64,000 bases of DNA from Nitrogeniibacter aestuarii (GTDB lineage Bacteria > Pseudomonadota > Gammaproteobacteria > Burkholderiales > Rhodocyclaceae), in NCBI RefSeq assembly GCF_017309585.1, contig NZ_CP071321.1:156335-220334 (forward strand), read 5' to 3'. Below are positions 28,823 to 35,948 of this stretch, piece by piece. The notes under the pieces are model-generated. The model made no database searches. It worked only from the letters and a program-made list of their open reading frames with translations, and was not told where the DNA came from. A program made the position numbers and the translations under genes. Each line of letters starts with the position of its first letter. Position 1 is the stretch's first letter.

Positions 28823-30469
28823 TCACGGCGTCTGCCCGGTGTTTGCGGGGCCTTGAGCGATGTCGGACCAGGCCAGCTCGAACTTCGCCAGATACTTGCG
28901 CAGGCGGTCGGCGTCGTTGACCACCTTCCGCTCGGTGCGCGAGATGTCGAACAGCTGTCGGCCGGCCTCCGACAGGCTCTTGCAGCGACGGCATTCGGCC
29001 ACTACTGCGGCCAGTTGAAGCCGGTCGAAACGATCGAGCGCATCGAGCCGATCCCCCAGCAGGGCGCGCAGACCGGCGGCGTCCGTCTCGCCGGCCTCCA
29101 CCGCCCACGCGTGTCTGAGGCGCTCGATTTCCTCTGCCACAATCGCCTCGTTGATCCGCCCGGCATCCGCCAGGGTCGCCATACGCGTGACCGAGGCCGA
29201 CAGCTCGCGAAAGTTGCCGCTCCAGCGCGCCTCGGGCGAGGTGGCAAAGCGCAGCCAGGCGCGTTTGGCCTCCACGTTGAAGCGCACTGCCTTGCCCAGT
29301 TCGCGGGCATGGCGCTCGAGTTCGAAATCCAGGTTGGGTTCGATGTCCTCGACCCGTTCGGCCAGGCCCGGCAGGGGGAAGGTCCACAGGTTGATCCGGG
29401 CATAGAGGTCTTCGCGGAATTTGCCCTCGCGCACCCATTGGCGCAGGTCGCGGTGGGTGCCGGCGATGAGCATGAAGTCGCTGCTCACCTCGGTGTCGCC
29501 GCCAAAGGGAAAGAAGTGCTTCTCTTCAATCGCCTTGAGCAGCATCGCCTGCTCGTCCAGGCCCAGCTCGCCGATTTCGTCCAGAAACAGCATGCCGTCG
29601 TGGGCCGCCCGCAGCAGGCCGGCGCGCTCGGTCTGCGCACCGGTAAAAGCCCCCTTCACATGGCCGAACAGGGCCGACATGGCCATGTCGCCGCGCAGGG
29701 TGGCGCAGTTCACCTCAACAAATCGCCCCTTCACCTGGTGACGGCGCTGGCGCAGTTCGAAAATGCGTCGTGCCAGAAAGCTCTTGCCCGCGCCGGTGGG
29801 CCCTACCAGCAGCACCGGCGCGGTGGAGCGCACCGCCACCTTCTCGATCTGCTCGATGGTGCGGTTGAAGGTGGCGTTGCGGGTGGCGATACCGCTCTTG
29901 AGGAAAGAGACGGTCTCCTCCGCCTCGCGGGCAAAGCGGGTGGCAATGGCGTCGTAGCGGGACAGATCCAGATCGATGACGGTGTGGGTGCCGCGCACGT
30001 CGCGGGGTTCGCCTTCGTTGGCCTCAGTGCGGCGCTTGCGCGGTGGCGCGGTCTGAAGCAGCCGCGCGGGCAGATAGTGCGCCTCGGTGAGCAGAAACCA
30101 GCAGATCTGCGCCACATGGGTGCCGGTGGTGATGTGGACGAGGTAGTCCTCGGCCTCGGTGTCGAAGGCATAGCCACGGGCGAAATCGTGCAGCGCGCCG
30201 TAAACCTCGCCGAAGTCCCACGGGTCGCGCAGCTCGATCTCCACCGAGCGCACCTCCGTCGCGGGCGACACCTCGGCAATGTCGAGCTTCACCTTGCTGG
30301 CCAGCCCCCGATTGCGGGCGTCGTGGATCAACTCGAGCCGATGCACCGGCAGGCCGTCCTGCTGGCACAGCCCCACCGTGGGTCGCCATTTCTGCCAGCG
30401 TTGCTGCCCCCGGCCACCGTAGTCGAGCACGGTGCCGAGAAAGCCGATCACGACGTTCTTGCGGTTCAT
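28823..30469 (-). CDS. rtcR: RtcR, sigma54-dependent transcriptional activator with N-terminal CARF domain
   Basis: N-terminal MNRKNVVIGFLGTVLDYGG (CARF-type). AAA+ sigma54 interaction module with Walker A GPTGAGKS and GAFTGA motif (HVKGAFTGA). C-terminal HTH. Divergent from an rtcB-containing operon. Confidence 0.85.
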   Translation of the reverse strand: MNRKNVVIGFLGTVLDYGGRGQQRWQKWRPTVGLCQQDGLPVHRLELIHDARNRGLASKVKLDIAEVSPATEVRSVEIELRDPWDFGEVYGALHDFARGYAFDTEAEDYLVHITTGTHVAQICWFLLTEAHYLPARLLQTAPPRKRRTEANEGEPRDVRGTHTVIDLDLSRYDAIATRFAREAEETVSFLKSGIATRNATFNRTIEQIEKVAVRSTAPVLLVGPTGAGKSFLARRIFELRQRRHQVKGRFVEVNCATLRGDMAMSALFGHVKGAFTGAQTERAGLLRAAHDGMLFLDEIGELGLDEQAMLLKAIEEKHFFPFGGDTEVSSDFMLIAGTHRDLRQWVREGKFREDLYARINLWTFPLPGLAERVEDIEPNLDFELERHARELGKAVRFNVEAKRAWLRFATSPEARWSGNFRELSASVTRMATLADAGRINEAIVAEEIERLRHAWAVEAGETDAAGLRALLGDRLDALDRFDRLQLAAVVAECRRCKSLSEAGRQLFDISRTERKVVNDADRLRKYLAKFELAWSDIAQGPANTGQTP

Positions 30470-30805
30470 GAGTTTCGCCAGAAAGATAAAAAACTAGCCA
30501 TTTGTATCTGATTTTAGCGACCGTGTTAAGCGCGTACATGACGAATGGCAATGCCGATAAAAAATTTTGTCTATTGAAAACATGAGTTTGCGATCTTTTT
30601 GAATCCTCTGTCGTATTTCTGGCACGCCCTTCGCAGTACAGAGATCAACCGCGGAATCACCGCTGGAGTACGGGTTGAGGTTCTGGATGCCTCGCCGGTG
30701 CGCTCCCGCCGGATGACGTTGTGTGGGGCGTATGCCGCCTCGGTGAAGAAACGGTGTGCTGGATGCGTGTTGGTACGTTGATTCAGGTTCGACTCCTGAC
30801 ATCCC

Positions 30806-30880
30806 CGTTCGGTAGCTCATTTGGATAGAGCAGCAGATTTCGATCTGTTGGTGGCGGGTTCGAATCCCGCTCGAACACCA
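30806..30880 (+). ncRNA. tRNA-like element (tRNA mimic or degenerate tRNA) with 3' CCA
   Basis: Canonical D-arm (TA-GCTC-ATTTGGATA-GAGC). Canonical T-arm (GCGGG-TTCGAAT-CCCGC). 6-7 bp acceptor pairing (CGTTCGG / TCGAACA) followed by encoded CCA. The anticodon arm is aberrant: CAGAT-TTCG-ATCTG with a UUCG-type tetraloop, or a 6-nt loop. Confidence 0.5.
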
Positions 30881-31126
30881 GCCTGATTAGCTGGCATTTA
30901 TTTCAAGCAGTACCCGCCGGTTGTGGCGGAAAGGGCGGCGGCCCACGCGGCCAACGCCCCGCCCGCCACCGCCGTGCCGGCCGGCCCTTGTGGCTCGCCA
31001 CGGGCAGCGATGGCAACACCTGACGGGTTGGAGGGCGCTTCGGTGACTTCCACTGCCCAAAGGCCTTGCCCCCGCACCCCGAGGCGCCCCGCAGGCGGCC
31101 CGCCGGCACGGCGACAGACTGGTAGA

Positions 31127-31390
31127 GGGGTCATCCCTCGCCATTCGCTGGATCGCGTTGTGCTCATGGCGCTTCGCTGGAACATCTTGAGGCTCGTCGC
31201 ATTGTGCGCATCTGCCTTTTGGAGGGATTCGCAGTAGCCATGAGCACAACCCTGCGGGCTCACCCCTGCTGGGCTCCATGGCCGCGTTGCGACTCCTTGA
31301 CTGGGGGCCACCCAGTCTGCGTCCCCGCGCCTTGCCCTGCAGCCCAGCAGGAGTGATCGCGCCAACGAATGGCGAGGGATGACCCCTCCC
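31127..31390. ncRNA. Candidate long-stem structured RNA (Y-RNA-like architecture) between rtcR and the band-7 gene
   Basis: 23-bp perfect inverted repeat: GAGGGGTCATCCCTCGCCATTCG at 31127-31149 and CGAATGGCGAGGGATGACCCCTC at 31368-31390. Extended by GATCGCG/CGCGATC. Internal hairpin GTGCTCATGGC...GCCATGAGCAC. No convincing ORF. Confidence 0.35.
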
Positions 31391-31426: not shown

Positions 31427-32575
31427 ATGAACATGTTGTGGAAGCGATTCGTGGTGAACCAGACCCAGCGCGCGCTGTTGCTGCGCGAGGGCAACTTCGA
31501 GCGTGTGCTCGAGCCGGGTGTGCATCGTGTGATGGACCCGTTCGACCGCTACGCCATCCAGTGCTGGAGCGTGCAGGCGCCGCACTTTGATCACCCGCTG
31601 GCTGAAACCCTGCGTCGTGAGCGGGGCGCGGTGATCGAACAGTACTTCGATGTGATGGACACCAATGAAGATCAGGTGGGCCTGCGCTTCGAGAACAAGA
31701 TGCTGGTCGAGATCGTGCCGCCGGGCGCCCGTCGCCTGTACTGGAAAGGCCCGGCCGAGGTGCGCTTCGAGGTGGTCGAGCTGGCCGAAGGCGCCGAGGT
31801 GCCGGCGCGTGTGGCGCGTCTGCTGAACCAGTCCAACCTGCGTAGCCGCGTGGTGACCGGGCTGGCCGGGGTGTTGAGCCTGCAAGTGCCGGCCTGGCAT
31901 CTGGGTGTGCTGAAGATCGACGGCAAGGTCGAGCGCCTGCTGGAGCCTGGTTTCGTGGCCTTCTGGCGCTTCAACCGCGAGGTGAGCGTCGAGCTGGTCG
32001 ATACCCGTCTGCAAACCTTGGAAGTGAGCGGGCAGGAGATCCTGACCCGCGACAAGGTCGGCCTGCGGGTGAACCTTGCCGCCACCTGGCGCTTTGCCGA
32101 CGTGCTGGCTGCGTTTGCCGCCACACCGAAGCCGGTGGAGCACCTGTACCGCGAACTGCAGTTCGGTTTGCGGGCGGCGGTGGGCACCCGGTCGCTCGAT
32201 GAGTTGCTGGAAAACAAGCAGCTCATCGACGAGGTGGTGAGCCAGCACCTGGCCCAGAAGCTGGCCGGGCAGGGCATCGAGGTGCATAGCGTGGGCGTGC
32301 GGGACATCGTTCTGCCGGGCGAGATGAAGACGATTCTCGCCCAGGTGGTCGAGGCGGAGAAATCCGCCCAGGCGAACGTGATCCGTCGCCGCGAAGAAAC
32401 CGCCGCCACCCGCTCGCTGCTCAACACCGCCAAGGTGATGGAAGAGAACCCGACGGCCCTGCGCCTGAAGGAGCTCGAAACCCTGGAGCGTGTGGCCGAG
32501 CGTATCGACCGCATCTCGGTGTTCGGTGGCCTGGACCAGGTGCTGAACGGCCTGGTGAGCATCAAGTCCGGGTGA
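31427..32575 (+). CDS. SPFH/band-7 (stomatin/prohibitin-like) domain protein
   Basis: 382 aa from MNMLWKRF with RBS GGAGAATAAAAATG. Band-7 core. Characteristic C-terminal coiled-coil (IRRREETAATRSLLNTAKVMEENPTALRLKELETLERVAE). Confidence 0.8.
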   Translation: MNMLWKRFVVNQTQRALLLREGNFERVLEPGVHRVMDPFDRYAIQCWSVQAPHFDHPLAETLRRERGAVIEQYFDVMDTNEDQVGLRFENKMLVEIVPPGARRLYWKGPAEVRFEVVELAEGAEVPARVARLLNQSNLRSRVVTGLAGVLSLQVPAWHLGVLKIDGKVERLLEPGFVAFWRFNREVSVELVDTRLQTLEVSGQEILTRDKVGLRVNLAATWRFADVLAAFAATPKPVEHLYRELQFGLRAAVGTRSLDELLENKQLIDEVVSQHLAQKLAGQGIEVHSVGVRDIVLPGEMKTILAQVVEAEKSAQANVIRRREETAATRSLLNTAKVMEENPTALRLKELETLERVAERIDRISVFGGLDQVLNGLVSIKSG

Positions 32576-32654
32576 GATTGGGACACGGCTTCGCCCGTGT
32601 CGGCCCGGCCGGGTGCGAGGCGATGGCTTCGCACCCGTTGGGGGAGGGCTTGGC

Positions 32655-32865
32655 GGGGCTGAGCGCGAAATGGCGAGCGGCCGGAAATGATTGCCGATAC
32701 CGGTGAAGGGTAAAACCGAAGGCTTTGGAAACGGGCGGTATTTGAGGATGCAGCTGCGGGGTCTGCGTAAGGTTCCGTACGTGGCGCGCGTTTAAAGCAC
32801 TGTTTCGCACGGGTGTCATGCCCCGTGTCGGCCTATTGCGGGTTCGAGTCCCGCCAGCCCCGCCA
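32655..32865 (+). ncRNA. Candidate structured RNA with tRNA/tmRNA-like terminal module
   Basis: 5' GGGGCTG pairs with 3' CAGCCCC, which is followed by discriminator G and CCA. Perfect T-arm GCGGG-TTCGAGT-CCCGC sits immediately before the 3' acceptor strand. Internal hairpins (CACGGG...CCCGTG; CCGG...CCGG). No tmRNA tag ORF. ~211 nt. Confidence 0.45.
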
Positions 32866-32913
32866 AGCCCTTCCCGGAGGGGAAAACGTTGCCCGGATGC
32901 ACGGGAGTGAAAC

Positions 32914-33321
32914 ATGAAAAGCAACAAACAACGCCGCGCCGAAATCATGGCGGCCCGACGCCAGCGCAAGCGGCTGCGGACGGTGGCGACTCAACTCGAG
33001 CAGCGCCGCGTGCCGCTCGCGGCCAACGCCCTGCCGGTGGACGCGGCCGCGCTGATGCCCACCAACAGTTACGGCGCACCCGTGTGGCAGACGCGCGGTT
33101 TCTATCTGGACCTTGCCTTCACCTGCAAGGACTGCGGTGCCGAGTGCCTGTGGACGGCGCAGCGACAGAAGTGGTGGTATGAAGTGGCCAAGGGCCACCC
33201 CGATTCCACCGCCGTGCGATGCAAACCCTGCCGCGCCAAAGAGCGCGCCAGAAAAGAGACGGCCCGCCGTGTGGCGCTGGCCGGTCTGCAAAAGAAAATG
33301 GAAGCAAAGGAACACCCATGA
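32914..33321 (+). CDS. zinc-ribbon domain protein (135 aa), translationally coupled to rtcB
   Basis: CKDCGAEC...RCKPCRA four-Cys ribbon. Basic N-terminus. Stop overlaps the rtcB ATG (ATGA). Possible weak sigma54-like GG-N10-GC element (AGGGGAAAACGTTGCC) about 20 nt upstream. Confidence 0.6.
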   Translation: MKSNKQRRAEIMAARRQRKRLRTVATQLEQRRVPLAANALPVDAAALMPTNSYGAPVWQTRGFYLDLAFTCKDCGAECLWTAQRQKWWYEVAKGHPDSTAVRCKPCRAKERARKETARRVALAGLQKKMEAKEHP

Positions 33322-34553
33322 AGATCGAACAACAACACGATCACGACATCCTGCACGCGGGACAGGGCGCGCCCATCAAGCTGTGGACCCACGGCGTGCC
33401 GGTCGAAGACGATGCCCGCCAGCAACTCATCAACACCGCGCAGATGCCCTTCATCTACAAGCATCTGGCCGTGATGCCGGATGTGCATCTGGGCAAGGGC
33501 TCGACCATCGGCAGCGTGATCCCCACCCGTGGCGCCATCATCCCGGCGGCCGTCGGTGTGGATATCGGCTGCGGCATGATGGCCGCCCGCACCACGCTCA
33601 CCGCGGCCGACCTGCCGGACAACCTGCACGGCCTGCGCACCGCCATCGAAAAGGCCGTGCCGCACGGGCGCAACATGACCCGAGGCAAGCGCGACCAGGG
33701 GAGCTGGGGTCGCCCGCCCGAGCTGGTGGATGCTTACTGGAAGGCGCTGCTGCCGGGCTTCAACCGCATTACCGAAAAGGCGCCGCGTTTGAAGAACACC
33801 AACAACCATAACCATTTGGGGACGCTCGGTACGGGCAACCACTTCATCGAAGTGTGCCTGGATGAGGCCGAGCGCGTGTGGATCATGCTGCATTCGGGTT
33901 CGCGCGGTGTGGGCAACGCCATCGGCCGCCACTACATCGAACTGGCCCAGGCCGACATGCGCCAGCACATCGCCAATCTGCCGGACCGCGACCTCGCCTA
34001 CTTCGAAGAAGGCTCGCAGCACTTCGACGACTATGTCGAGGCCGTGGGCTGGGCGCAGGACTACGCCCGCAAGAACCGCGAAGTGATGATGCAGCACGTG
34101 ATCGCCGCCACCCGTACCGTGATCGAAAAGCCCTTCCAGGCGGATGTGGAGGCGGTGAACTGCCACCACAACTACGTGCAGCGCGAAACCCACTTCGGGC
34201 ACAAGGTGCTGGTGACGCGAAAAGGCGCTGTGTCCGCCCAGAAAGGCCAGCTCGGCATCATCCCCGGCTCCATGGGCGCACGCAGCTACATCGTGCGCGG
34301 CAAGGGCAACCCGGAGAGCTTCTGCTCATGCAGCCACGGAGCAGGACGCACCATGAGCCGCAACGCCGCCAAGAAGCGTTTCTCGATCGAAGACCAGATT
34401 CGCGCGACCGAAGGCGTGGAATGCCGCAAGGATGCATCGGTGATTGACGAAATCCCGATGGCGTATAAGGATATCGACGCCGTCATGGCCGCGCAGGACG
34501 CGCTGGTGGAGGTGGTGCACACCTTGAAGCAGGTGGTGTGTGTGAAGGGGTGA
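33318..34553 (+). CDS. rtcB: RNA-splicing ligase RtcB (3'-phosphate/5'-hydroxyl RNA ligase)
   Basis: 411 aa. HLGKGSTIGSVIPT, GVDIGCGM, HNHLGTLGTGNHFIE, MLHSGSRGVGNAIG, NCHHNY and AHGAGR motifs of RtcB. Confidence 0.9.
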   Translation: MKIEQQHDHDILHAGQGAPIKLWTHGVPVEDDARQQLINTAQMPFIYKHLAVMPDVHLGKGSTIGSVIPTRGAIIPAAVGVDIGCGMMAARTTLTAADLPDNLHGLRTAIEKAVPHGRNMTRGKRDQGSWGRPPELVDAYWKALLPGFNRITEKAPRLKNTNNHNHLGTLGTGNHFIEVCLDEAERVWIMLHSGSRGVGNAIGRHYIELAQADMRQHIANLPDRDLAYFEEGSQHFDDYVEAVGWAQDYARKNREVMMQHVIAATRTVIEKPFQADVEAVNCHHNYVQRETHFGHKVLVTRKGAVSAQKGQLGIIPGSMGARSYIVRGKGNPESFCSCSHGAGRTMSRNAAKKRFSIEDQIRATEGVECRKDASVIDEIPMAYKDIDAVMAAQDALVEVVHTLKQVVCVKG

Positions 34554-34583: not shown

Positions 34584-35948
34584 ATGGATAATCTGAATTA
34601 TTCCGAATCTGATTTTGGTGAAAGGTTAAACAAAGTACTTTCAGCGTCAAAGCCGATAAACAGCATTGAATTTTTAAAAGGTAGAGATAGAGAGCTAGAA
34701 ACCATAAAACGCGCTCTATACGCTGACGGGAGGCACGTTTTTATCTTCGGAGATCGAGGTGTCGGGAAGAGTTCACTGGGCCAAACTGCTGCGATCGCAT
34801 ACCAAAGTTCGGATGCAGAACCAATCTTCGTTTCGGGGTCACCTGACGATTCATTCTCATCCATAGTGGCCAACATAGTGGCGCGAGCGATTAGCAAGCC
34901 GCGTACGAAAAGCGTAAAAAATTCGAAAAAAATTTCGCTTTCTTTTAGAGGTCTTTCGATTGGTGAAGGGGAAGATGTCAGCCCAATCGATATCGAATCT
35001 AACATCCAAACAATTGGTGATGCTGTTGAACTGCTCAGGCAGGCTGGAAAAGAGCACTCAGCTAAGCCTATCATTGTAATTGACGAGTTTGATACGATTT
35101 CCAGTCTCGATGAGAGAAACAAGTTCTCATATCTTCTCAAGCAGTTGGGAGATCAAGCAGTAAACATCAAATTCATTTTTACTGGAATTGCTCGGTCTCT
35201 AGATGAATTATTAGGAGTGCATCAATCGGCGTATCGGCAACTCGAGACAGTTGAACTGCCTCGCCTTGGCTGGGACGCTCGCCGCGAAATCGTAACTTCA
35301 ACTGCGGCTGCATTCAATATCACTGTGGATAACGATGTAAATTGGCGCATATGTATGGTGAGCGATGGGTATCCATACTACATACATCTTGTGTTGGAAA
35401 AGATTTTATGGGCAGCTTACATTCTAGAGCCTGATATCTCGGAGATTGGATGGGATTTGTTTCATGAAGGTTTGCACGAAGCCATTTTGGCAACAAGTGC
35501 AGAGTTGAAGCGGCCTTACGAAAAAGCGGTATTGCACAGAGAAGAATCATACGAAGATGTTGTATGGGCAACCGCTGATCATGACGATTTAATGAGGTCG
35601 TTGAATGATATGTATGAATCGTACAGATTGGTTGTAGAAAAAAGGAATGATGCGCGCGAAGTTTTAGACCGGGGGAGATTTTCCGCGCTGGTGCGTAAGC
35701 TCAAAGACGCAAGCTACGGTTCTGTACTTACAAGTGTTGAGTCGCGTAAAGGCTGGTATTCCTACAGAGAAAAAATGCTACGCGGATTCGTTCGAATGCA
35801 AGCGCACGTTAACGGTGTCGAGTTGACTGGTGATCGACCAACGCCGAGACAGACGCAGCACGTTGGGAACGCGCGAAAGGGTTACAAAGGCGCAGCTTTG
35901 CCGCGCGGTGTTCGCCAGCGTTCAAAAATCGGAAGTTGGGACGATTGA
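34584..35948 (+). CDS. P-loop NTPase of the AAA_16/Arch_ATPase (ORC/Cdc6-like) type, encoded on a low-GC island
   Basis: Walker A (FIFGDRGVGKSSL) preceded by LKGRDRELETIKRAL. Walker B (PIIVIDEFD). 454 aa. Codon and GC content sharply lower than the flanks (AT-rich from 34555 to ~36540). Confidence 0.8.
   Translation: MDNLNYSESDFGERLNKVLSASKPINSIEFLKGRDRELETIKRALYADGRHVFIFGDRGVGKSSLGQTAAIAYQSSDAEPIFVSGSPDDSFSSIVANIVARAISKPRTKSVKNSKKISLSFRGLSIGEGEDVSPIDIESNIQTIGDAVELLRQAGKEHSAKPIIVIDEFDTISSLDERNKFSYLLKQLGDQAVNIKFIFTGIARSLDELLGVHQSAYRQLETVELPRLGWDARREIVTSTAAAFNITVDNDVNWRICMVSDGYPYYIHLVLEKILWAAYILEPDISEIGWDLFHEGLHEAILATSAELKRPYEKAVLHREESYEDVVWATADHDDLMRSLNDMYESYRLVVEKRNDAREVLDRGRFSALVRKLKDASYGSVLTSVESRKGWYSYREKMLRGFVRMQAHVNGVELTGDRPTPRQTQHVGNARKGYKGAALPRGVRQRSKIGSWDD

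Follow-up and report, generated by a model that had tools for sequence, protein, structure and literature searches.

Two questions about bacterial RtcB form the background here: what it repairs, and why tRNA mimics such as YrlA and b7a-tRNA are so often encoded in rtc operons. The activator RtcR binds 5' tRNA halves with a terminal 2',3'-cyclic phosphate (PMC7790460). The YrlA RNA of M. smegmatis is cleaved by RNase P and has CCA added (Chen et al. 2014, PMC4201824). [quoted passage not shown] The Anabaena trn operon is a tRNA array induced by translational stress and co-regulated with rtcB and slipin, and stress-induced operonic tRNAs of this kind have been proposed to serve as sponges for toxin RNases (PMC8421152, PMC10272220). 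Here we describe a 211-nucleotide (nt) tRNA-shaped noncoding RNA (ncRNA) encoded within an RtcR/sigma-54 RNA-repair operon of Nitrogeniibacter aestuarii. It occupies positions 32655-32865 of a 64,000-nt stretch of contig NZ_CP071321.1 (the window), on the + strand, as do the genes of the operon.

The window operon consists, in order, of leader tRNA mimics, a slipin gene, the 211-nt RNA, a treble-clef zinc-finger gene (zf_Tbcl), and rtcB. Its tRNA-like elements number three: a degenerate leader element, a b7a-tRNA, and the 211-nt RNA. The original prediction, made from the sequence alone, recognized that several such RNAs share the operon but counted two. Among the tRNA mimics of rtc operons, a known theme, the 211-nt RNA has a new architecture, and its family is the third, structurally distinct, member of that theme after YrlA and b7a-tRNA. 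The family combines an apparently complete tRNA scaffold and an encoded CCA with a large conserved addition, and it is linked to rtcB in two proteobacterial classes.

A conserved RNA family linked to rtcB

Attention was drawn to the RNA by tRNA/tmRNA-like ends, namely GGGGCTG at the 5' end and a T-arm, CAGCCCC, G, and CCA at the 3' end. Reading of the sequence confirms each of these features at the predicted positions, giving an acceptor stem, a canonical T-arm, and an encoded CCA. The predicted near identity of the T-arm to that of the tRNA mimic at 30806-30878 also holds, with one base different. A complement to the 7-mer occurs in 5.6% of composition-matched 250-nt shuffles and is weak evidence alone. 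The single-sequence fold (z-score -0.81) gives no support by itself; its minimum-energy structure disrupts the T-arm, and folding of the leader region told no more. Both lines are thin, and the case for the element is carried by comparison across genomes.

Slipin homologues were aligned, and the alignment served to retrieve 80 slipin-rtcB loci, all from genomes that represent species. Eight of the 80 carry, 3' of the slipin gene, a module made up of a T-arm, 7 nt, any nucleotide, and CCA. Seven of the eight candidates are full length (210-216 nt) and come from Dechloromonas, Azovibrio, Azonexus, Zoogloeaceae, Gallionellaceae, and two unclassified metagenome-assembled genomes. The eighth, in L039, is a 3' remnant. 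A conserved 21-nt pattern returned 12 metagenome matches, nine of which are family members; L081, L086, and L092 are chance matches in coding sequence and were rejected. The RNA is also present in L101, a 97%-identical relative of the window operon. In total, 18 loci encode it, the window and 17 others from Rhodocyclales, Gallionellaceae, and marine Gammaproteobacteria. Homologues are 210-242 nt long, or 297 and 475 nt where insertions are present, and the termini are unchanged throughout.

A covariance model (R1) built from 15 distinct members scores the window RNA at 219.9 bits (E about 1e-61) and full-length members at 142-250 bits. One member with a large insertion (L083) gives two matches, of 70 and 53 bits. 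Divergent copies were found in marine Cellvibrionaceae-like Gammaproteobacteria, scoring 70 bits (L110) and 33.5 bits (L108/L109). These emerged from look-ups of rtcB relatives of marine members, via P0234 (L110) and P0182 (L108/L109); the RNA was not found in the other five of the seven look-ups. Three pattern scans of viral contigs returned nothing, or only chance matches in coding regions.

Covariation across the family is extensive. In a MAFFT alignment of 15 sequences, 95.6% of the pair cells of a 58-pair structure hold standard pairs and 26 of the 58 pairs are compensated, figures that are somewhat circular in that the structure derives partly from RNAalifold run on the same alignment. 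None of 500 shuffles reaches this level of pairing, and slid controls give 35-46%. A model-fitted alignment of 16 members, including the distant L110, has 96.7% standard pair cells and 33 of 58 pairs compensated, although an alignment of this kind leans towards its model. The original prediction had named loss of the GGGGCUG/CAGCCCC pairing amid otherwise conserved sequence as one of its refutations. Instead, the acceptor stem shows repeated compensatory changes among homologues: all seven pairs are standard in every sequence, and four to five of the seven have changed in compensation. The variants are GGGGCUG/CAGCCCC, GGGCACG/CGUGCCC, GGGCGUG/CACGUCC, GGGCAUG/CAUGCCC, GAGCACG/CGUGUUC, and GGGCGCA/UGCGCCU. 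We conclude with near certainty that these RNAs form a family that is conserved, structured, and tRNA-shaped and that is linked to rtcB.

Two further results support a tRNA-like core. When the large arm is deleted in silico, at splice points chosen by hand, ARAGORN with default settings calls the core of L028 a tRNA; with its threshold relaxed, it does so for 13 of 15 cores. The best non-member matches of the family model are genuine tRNA-Tyr and tRNA-Ser, which have long variable arms. Searches of Rfam 15 at gathering and permissive E-value thresholds returned no family match, only weak matches of the T-arm to transfer-messenger RNA (tmRNA) models. Full-text literature searches, whose reach did not extend to Burroughs and Aravind 2016, returned no prior description of the 211-nt RNA. 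The family is thus without an Rfam entry and without a description in the searchable literature, and the covariance model now supplies a means of detecting an RNA gene that current genome pipelines miss.

Anatomy of the RNA

The RNA is read from the + strand because G:U pairs, many of them invariant, are abundant in that orientation. The mimicry that was originally placed at the ends is indeed found there but is not confined to them, as the RNA has a full cloverleaf core with a probable D-arm, an anticodon-position hairpin, and a T-arm. The acceptor 5' strand GGGGCUG (32655-32661) pairs with CAGCCCC (32855-32861), and a predicted RNase P site lies just 5' of G1. A8 and G9 stand between the acceptor stem and the D-arm; position 8 is thus A and not U. 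The probable D-arm (32664-32679) has a stem of positions 10-12 with 23-25, a G13.A22 pair, and a loop containing A14, A15, and G18G19. Its 10:25 pair changes from C:G to G:C in L085, L087, and L110. RNAalifold proposes an alternative here, a 3-bp CGC/GCG hairpin, which is favored in L059 by a 2-nt deletion.

One nucleotide (G26) separates the D stem from the anticodon-position hairpin (32680-32704), in which a GCCGG/CCGGU stem closes a 14-nt loop. There is no U33 and no 7-nt anticodon loop in the window RNA. Among members this loop varies from 7 to 15 nt and begins AAA(C/U)G, again without U33. In most members the stem does not vary, and L110 compensates it fully (GCCGGU/ACCGGU to CCACCU/AGGUGG). 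A nearly invariant linker, GAAGGGUAAAACCGA (32705-32719), follows and contains a small hairpin with a GUAAAA loop (32708-32717), which is longer in L110 (CCAG-GUAAAA-CUGG).

About 133 nt separate the anticodon-position hairpin from the T-arm. The hairpins earlier noted in the interior are present, but they belong to one conserved domain, a giant "variable arm" of about 115 nt (32720-32834) that forms a three-way junction. From this anatomy we place the domain at the variable-arm position of class II tRNAs. Its basal stem S1 pairs 32720-32724 with 32830-32834, and stem S2 pairs 32729-32736 with 32797-32805. Beyond S2, at 32737-32751 and 32788-32796, are a conserved internal loop, GGUAUUUGA opposite AAA, and the helix GGAUGC/GCGUUU, which lead to a distal hairpin (32753-32785). 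The third branch, hairpin S3 (32808-32827), carries the conserved loop (A/U)GU(A/C)AUGC. S1, S2, the distal hairpin, and S3 have four to seven compensated pairs apiece. The invariant motifs of the arm are GGUAUUUGA opposite AAA, AUGCAG, GCGCGUUU, and GU.AUGC. The position of the variable arm in the tRNA fold can therefore carry a three-way-junction domain of more than 100 nt.

Three nucleotides join the extra arm to the T-arm, the last of them being U48, opposite A15. The T-arm itself (32838-32854; GCGGG-UUCGAGU-CCCGC) is canonical and is kept by every member; in L083 one of its pairs is compensated (GUGGG/CCCAC). After the acceptor 3' strand come the discriminator G (32862) and the encoded CCA (32863-32865). 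The discriminator is A in most members, and position pair 3:70 is G:C in nine of 16 members and G:U in seven of 16, and near-identical relatives can differ in it. The window RNA combines G3:C70 with G73. Outside the RNA, the 5' leader (32634-32654, + strand) is complementary to the 3' trailer (32866-32882) and can form with it an imperfect 28-nt duplex (86% complementary) that extends the acceptor helix and pairs across the GCCA. This duplex occurs in the window and L101 and in no other member. Its role may be to admit RNase III, or it may be left over from relocation of the gene.

Comparison with known RNA classes

The 211-nt RNA has the 7-bp acceptor stem, UUCRANY-loop T-arm, and 3' NCCA of a tRNA. 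Its native sequence was matched by neither the Rfam tRNA model nor the ARAGORN tRNA search. We rejected a decoding tRNA on three counts: the 7-15-nt loop in the anticodon position, the absence of U33, and a variable region of about 133 nt compared with at most about 24. Class II tRNAs (Leu, Ser, and Tyr) also have an extra arm between the anticodon arm and the T-arm, but theirs is 10-20 nt long, whereas in the 211-nt RNA it is a three-way junction of about 115 nt. The 211-nt RNA further differs from them in its anticodon-position loop and in having A8 rather than U8.

Likeness to tmRNA lies in an acceptor stem, T-arm, and NCCA joined from the two ends of a longer RNA, and in the G3:U70 and A73 of some members. 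In contrast to tmRNA, the 211-nt RNA has a probable D-stem and an anticodon-position hairpin and has no tag open reading frame (ORF). The original prediction had excluded ssrA for want of such an ORF, and the family bears this out. Most members contain AUG-GCG-CGC-GUU-UAA, but L059, L088, and L028 lack its in-frame stop. The scans that the original prediction proposed, with tmRNA, tRNA, and Y RNA models (the last as YrlA), gave no match on the native RNA beyond the weak T-arm matches to tmRNA. These reach at most 15.5 bits with the tmRNA models and 19.7 bits with the permuted model, compared with gathering scores of 47 or more, and the ARAGORN tmRNA search found none. We therefore rejected tmRNA (RF00023, RF01850, RF04321), given a tag frame with stop that is not conserved and G3:U70 in only seven of 16 members.

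YrlA resembles the 211-nt RNA in being an ncRNA of RtcR-controlled rtcB operons and in its modular build, a tRNA-mimicking part combined with another domain. It differs in having a Ro-binding stem made of its two termini and a tRNA-like part without an anticodon arm. The termini of the 211-nt RNA form an acceptor stem, not a Ro-binding stem, and the YrlA model gave no match, so YrlA/Y RNA (RF02553) was rejected. The Ro-binding motif is defined as GNCGAAN0-1G or GGUCCGA; by eye, with no pattern search made, we saw no strict GNCGAAN0-1G motif in the aligned members. No TROVE (Ro60/rsr) gene was found in the window operon or in the loci with Pfam listings.

The 211-nt RNA shares with b7a-tRNA its place in the operon type, as a tRNA-like gene adjoining Band-7/slipin and rtcB, where b7a-tRNA is a predicted tRNA mimic. 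But b7a-tRNA is tRNA-sized, and the 211-nt RNA co-occurs with it as a larger, separate gene in a minority of such operons. Identity with b7a-tRNA was rejected on the length of 211 nt, the failure of tRNA detection, and the presence of a true b7a-tRNA as a separate gene at 30806-30878. Arrays of the Anabaena type are alike in linking extra tRNA-type genes to rtcB and slipin, and the RNA of L083 heads one such array. These arrays encode decoding-competent tRNAs, whereas the 211-nt RNA cannot decode.

Models of self-cleaving ribozymes and group I/II introns gave no match at E up to 10 in the window and up to 5 in six member loci. Two likenesses, of GGUGAAG..GUAA.ACCG to the 3' region of 16S rRNA and of UUGAGGA to the hammerhead CUGANGA box, were dropped as unsupported, with no Rfam matches.

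Distribution, arrangement, and loss

The RNA always adjoins rtcB, upstream or downstream, in RtcR/sigma-54 RNA-repair operons. Most Rhodocyclales have the order slipin, optional zf_Tbcl, RNA, rtcB, RlaP, and rtcA. In L091, rtcR is followed by the RNA, rtcB, two tRNA-like genes, and slipin. The RNA lies between rtcB and rtcA in L110 and follows rtcB in L085 and L087. The RNA of L091 starts 17 nt past a perfect TGGCAC-N5-TTGC sigma-54 promoter, from which we take it to be the 5'-most product of an RtcR-dependent transcript, with a leader of about 6 nt. In L083, the RNA follows rtcB and heads an array with nine tRNA genes; the gap to the first of these is 10 nt, a spacing that implies tRNA-like processing.

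Several loci show loss or interruption of the RNA. L039 (5511-5615) retains just the 3' ~30 nt (T-arm, CATGTCC, and ACCA); its zf_Tbcl frame reads through the remnant to a stop just beyond, and the deletion is an independent one. L095 keeps only CCAGCCCCGCCAAGCC, the last ~16 nt of the RNA. A REP-like inverted pair (GTAGGGCGGATAAGC...CATCCGCC) occupies the RNA slot in L095 (1313-1534), L098 (5998-6219), and L099 (2168-2389). In L083 (2011-2485), an insertion of about 269 nt (RNA positions 111-379) with ~25-nt terminal inverted repeats lies in the distal hairpin. L108 (5304-5600) has an insertion of about 75 nt within the T-loop that is absent from the 93%-related L110. The 211-nt RNA is an optional accessory of the repair system, not a core part. 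It is a convenient experimental handle because it is optional and has clear invariant loops: strains that carry the RNA and strains that lack it occur naturally in one genus, the loops are open to mutation, and the partner protein could be sought with the extra arm as bait.

Possible processing and function

On balance, and with modest confidence, we favor the explanation that the 211-nt RNA is a stable ncRNA, cotranscribed with the operon and excised like a tRNA, that acts in trans as a tRNA mimic. By analogy with tRNAs and with M. smegmatis YrlA, tRNA-type processing is likely; the trans-acting function is a tentative proposal. Activation of RtcR by damaged tRNA would lead to transcription of the RNA. 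RNase P would then excise it from the polycistronic transcript at G1, with 3' trimming that ends at the encoded CCA, both of which are plausible from the anatomy. The original prediction had likewise suggested that such tRNA-like ends might make the RNAs substrates or regulators for RtcB, the CCA-adding enzyme, or RNase P. Contact of G18G19 in the D-loop with the T-loop would fold it into an L-shape. The product may act in trans as a non-decoding tRNA mimic whose tRNA body could be bound by a tRNA-recognizing damage-response factor, such as a tRNA-targeting nuclease, RtcB, or RtcR. It might be a competitor that resists cleavage, or else an adaptor, and its extra arm would bind a specific partner through the invariant loops. 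We favor a role of this kind because the anticodon-position hairpin has lost the features that anticodon nucleases and the ribosome need, and conservation is strongest in the acceptor/T-arm half and the extra arm. It would parallel what has been proposed for YrlA, b7a-tRNA, and the Anabaena "sponge" tRNAs.

A bolder proposal, which we consider improbable, is that the giant arm is the active module of a new kind of RNA-repair ribonucleoprotein component. In a docking version of this hypothesis, the RNA would dock RtcB or a slipin assembly, as a bacterial equivalent of Y or vault RNAs with a complete tRNA for its scaffold. In a sentinel version, it would be cleaved and resealed, and the 5' fragment with its 2',3'-cyclic phosphate would be a dedicated ligand of the RtcR CARF domain.

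A number of observations count against the stable, trans-acting mimic that we favor. Only about eight of the 80 slipin-rtcB loci (~10%) have the RNA, which is thus dispensable, and in relatives with 85-88% identical slipin the REP-like palindrome pair replaces it. The interrupted T-loop of the distant member L108 indicates that an intact tRNA elbow is not kept universally. No gene co-occurs specifically with the RNA, so that no partner is indicated; the co-occurrence search gave only general operon genes (slipin, RtcB, RlaP, RtcA, and zf_Tbcl) that are also found in RNA-negative loci. The pairing of leader with trailer over the CCA in this species is not what RNase P substrates usually show, and the duplex could hinder the enzyme. 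Every functional step, whether expression, processing, or binding, is inferred.

The main rival is that the RNA is purely a cis-acting processing or stability element. Its tRNA shape would recruit RNase P and 3' processing, splitting slipin from the zf_Tbcl, rtcB, or rtcA cistrons and setting mRNA ends and half-lives, and the excised RNA would have no role. The RNA is always intergenic in the operon, with its end 30-65 nt ahead of the next start codon. In L083 it is spaced like a tRNA in a tRNA array, and it is dispensable in close relatives, all of which would suit a punctuation mark. However, a plain mark has no need of a ~115-nt domain whose invariant loops and compensated helices are kept from Betaproteobacteria to Gammaproteobacteria. 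The position of the RNA relative to rtcB also changes (upstream, downstream, or at the head of a tRNA array), and the operon leader already holds tRNA-like elements. We regard this rival as unlikely. The same conserved domain speaks against a decaying tRNA gene, split by an insertion and functionless, an idea that draws on the patchy distribution, the deletions that leave 3' remnants (L039 and L095), and the insertions in L083 and L108. The supposed insertion is itself conserved, with many compensatory changes in distant lineages, and the exact ends and strict rtcB linkage are retained; covariation in particular makes a decaying gene barely credible.

Two other rivals give the RNA an activity. 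As a sentinel or amplifier, it would be cut by a ribonuclease, whether invading or stress-related, or would cut itself through its conserved core. The resulting tRNA-like 5' fragment, with its 2',3'-cyclic phosphate, would act back on the CARF domain of RtcR and could be resealed by RtcB. Such ends are exactly those on which RtcB and RtcA act, and the invariant internal loops are like those of catalytic or ligand-binding cores. Yet none of the known self-cleaving ribozyme families matches the RNA at E up to 10, the anticodon-position hairpin is without anticodon-nuclease recognition features, and cleavage itself is conjecture; we think this reading very unlikely. Finally, the RNA might be charged by alanyl-tRNA synthetase (AlaRS) through G3:U70 and A73 and act on stalled ribosomes as an alanine-accepting tmRNA-like RNA. 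Several members have G3:U70 together with A73, tmRNA models match weakly over the T-arm, and GGGGCUG...GGGUUCGA.UCCCGCCAGC.CC.CCA is very like the ends of E. coli tmRNA. The inconstancy of G3:U70, present in seven of 16 members only and flipping among near-identical relatives, with G3:C70 and G73 in the window, tells against charging. Together with a tag ORF that is not conserved, tmRNA models that stay below gathering, and no ARAGORN tmRNA, it leaves an alanine-accepting RNA extremely doubtful.

Operon context and other features

The operon is divergent from rtcR (28823-30469, - strand), which encodes a CARF and sigma-54 activator (Pfam RtcR, 2e-84; Sigma54_activat, 2e-51). A sigma-54-type promoter, TGGCAC-N5-TCGC, was read from the sequence at 30620-30634 (+), and the motif GGCAC-N5-TCGC occurs at the equivalent position in 57 of 80 related loci. 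The slipin/SPFH (Band-7) gene lies directly 5' of the RNA (31427-32575, +; Pfam Band_7, 3e-33), and its product is identical to WP_230970320.1 of N. aestuarii; RtcR and a neighboring ATPase likewise have identical NCBI entries from this species. No promoter-like or terminator-like site was found between this gene and the 211-nt RNA. From the slipin stop to the RNA (32578-32650) there are two G+C-rich hairpins without a U-tract. The second of these (GGGTGCGAGGC...GCTTCGCACCC) is retained in the RNA-less L095, with its apical part altered. The zf_Tbcl gene (32914-33321, +; Pfam PF13451, 1.6e-13) begins 48 nt 3' of the RNA, and its stop overlaps the start (ATGA) of the rtcB RNA ligase gene (33318-34553, +; Pfam RtcB, 5e-131).

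The b7a-tRNA-type mimic of the leader is 73 nt long (30806-30878, +), with its T-arm at 30854-30870. It scores 47.2 bits with the Rfam tRNA model and is called a tRNA of undetermined anticodon by ARAGORN. Before it stands a degenerate T-arm-bearing element (T-arm 30783-30799, +), in tandem with the b7a-tRNA in the leader (30640-30878). A YrlA match over 30756-30860 is below threshold (30.3 bits compared with a gathering score of 69). A pair of T-arms with a spacing of about 70 nt is found 5' of the slipin gene in nearly all of the 80 related loci, and the "anticodon" of the second element changes by locus (Met, Val, Thr, Ile, Glu, Lys, and others). The first leader element of L077 is an RNA of about 155 nt with its own acceptor stem and ACCA. 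In the window, an element of about 264 bp (31125-31388) sits between the b7a-tRNA and the slipin gene, where the spacer is about twice that of other loci. It has 27-nt terminal inverted repeats (96% complementary) and additional internal palindromes, and looks like an insertion of the miniature inverted-repeat transposable element type.

Some slipin-rtcB operons also adjoin an array of 5-13 tRNA genes that appear genuine and encode CCA. These arrays lie in L052, L061, L062, L066, L070, and L074 (about 1100-2900), L083 (722-2001), and L108 (7447-8274). In loci of the Comamonadaceae/Sphaerotilaceae type, the array is just 5' of the b7a-tRNA, and no rtcR was detected in the fetched stretch. The arrays resemble the stress-induced cyanobacterial tRNA L-arrays that are co-regulated with rtcB. 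In L108, an HNH gene follows the array.

Downstream of rtcB, most Rhodocyclales members have an RlaP-family (Pol beta-type) nucleotidyltransferase gene (for example, L020 7104-7925, with equivalents in L024, L028, L035, L037, L071, and L082) and rtcA; the window operon is without both. There, a STAND/AAA_16 NTPase gene (34584-35948) comes directly after rtcB. In the related locus L094 (8983-12287), nSTAND1 and TIR-like genes follow rtcB on the opposite strand. The STAND/AAA_16, nSTAND1, and TIR-like genes look like defense-type neighbors of the repair operon.

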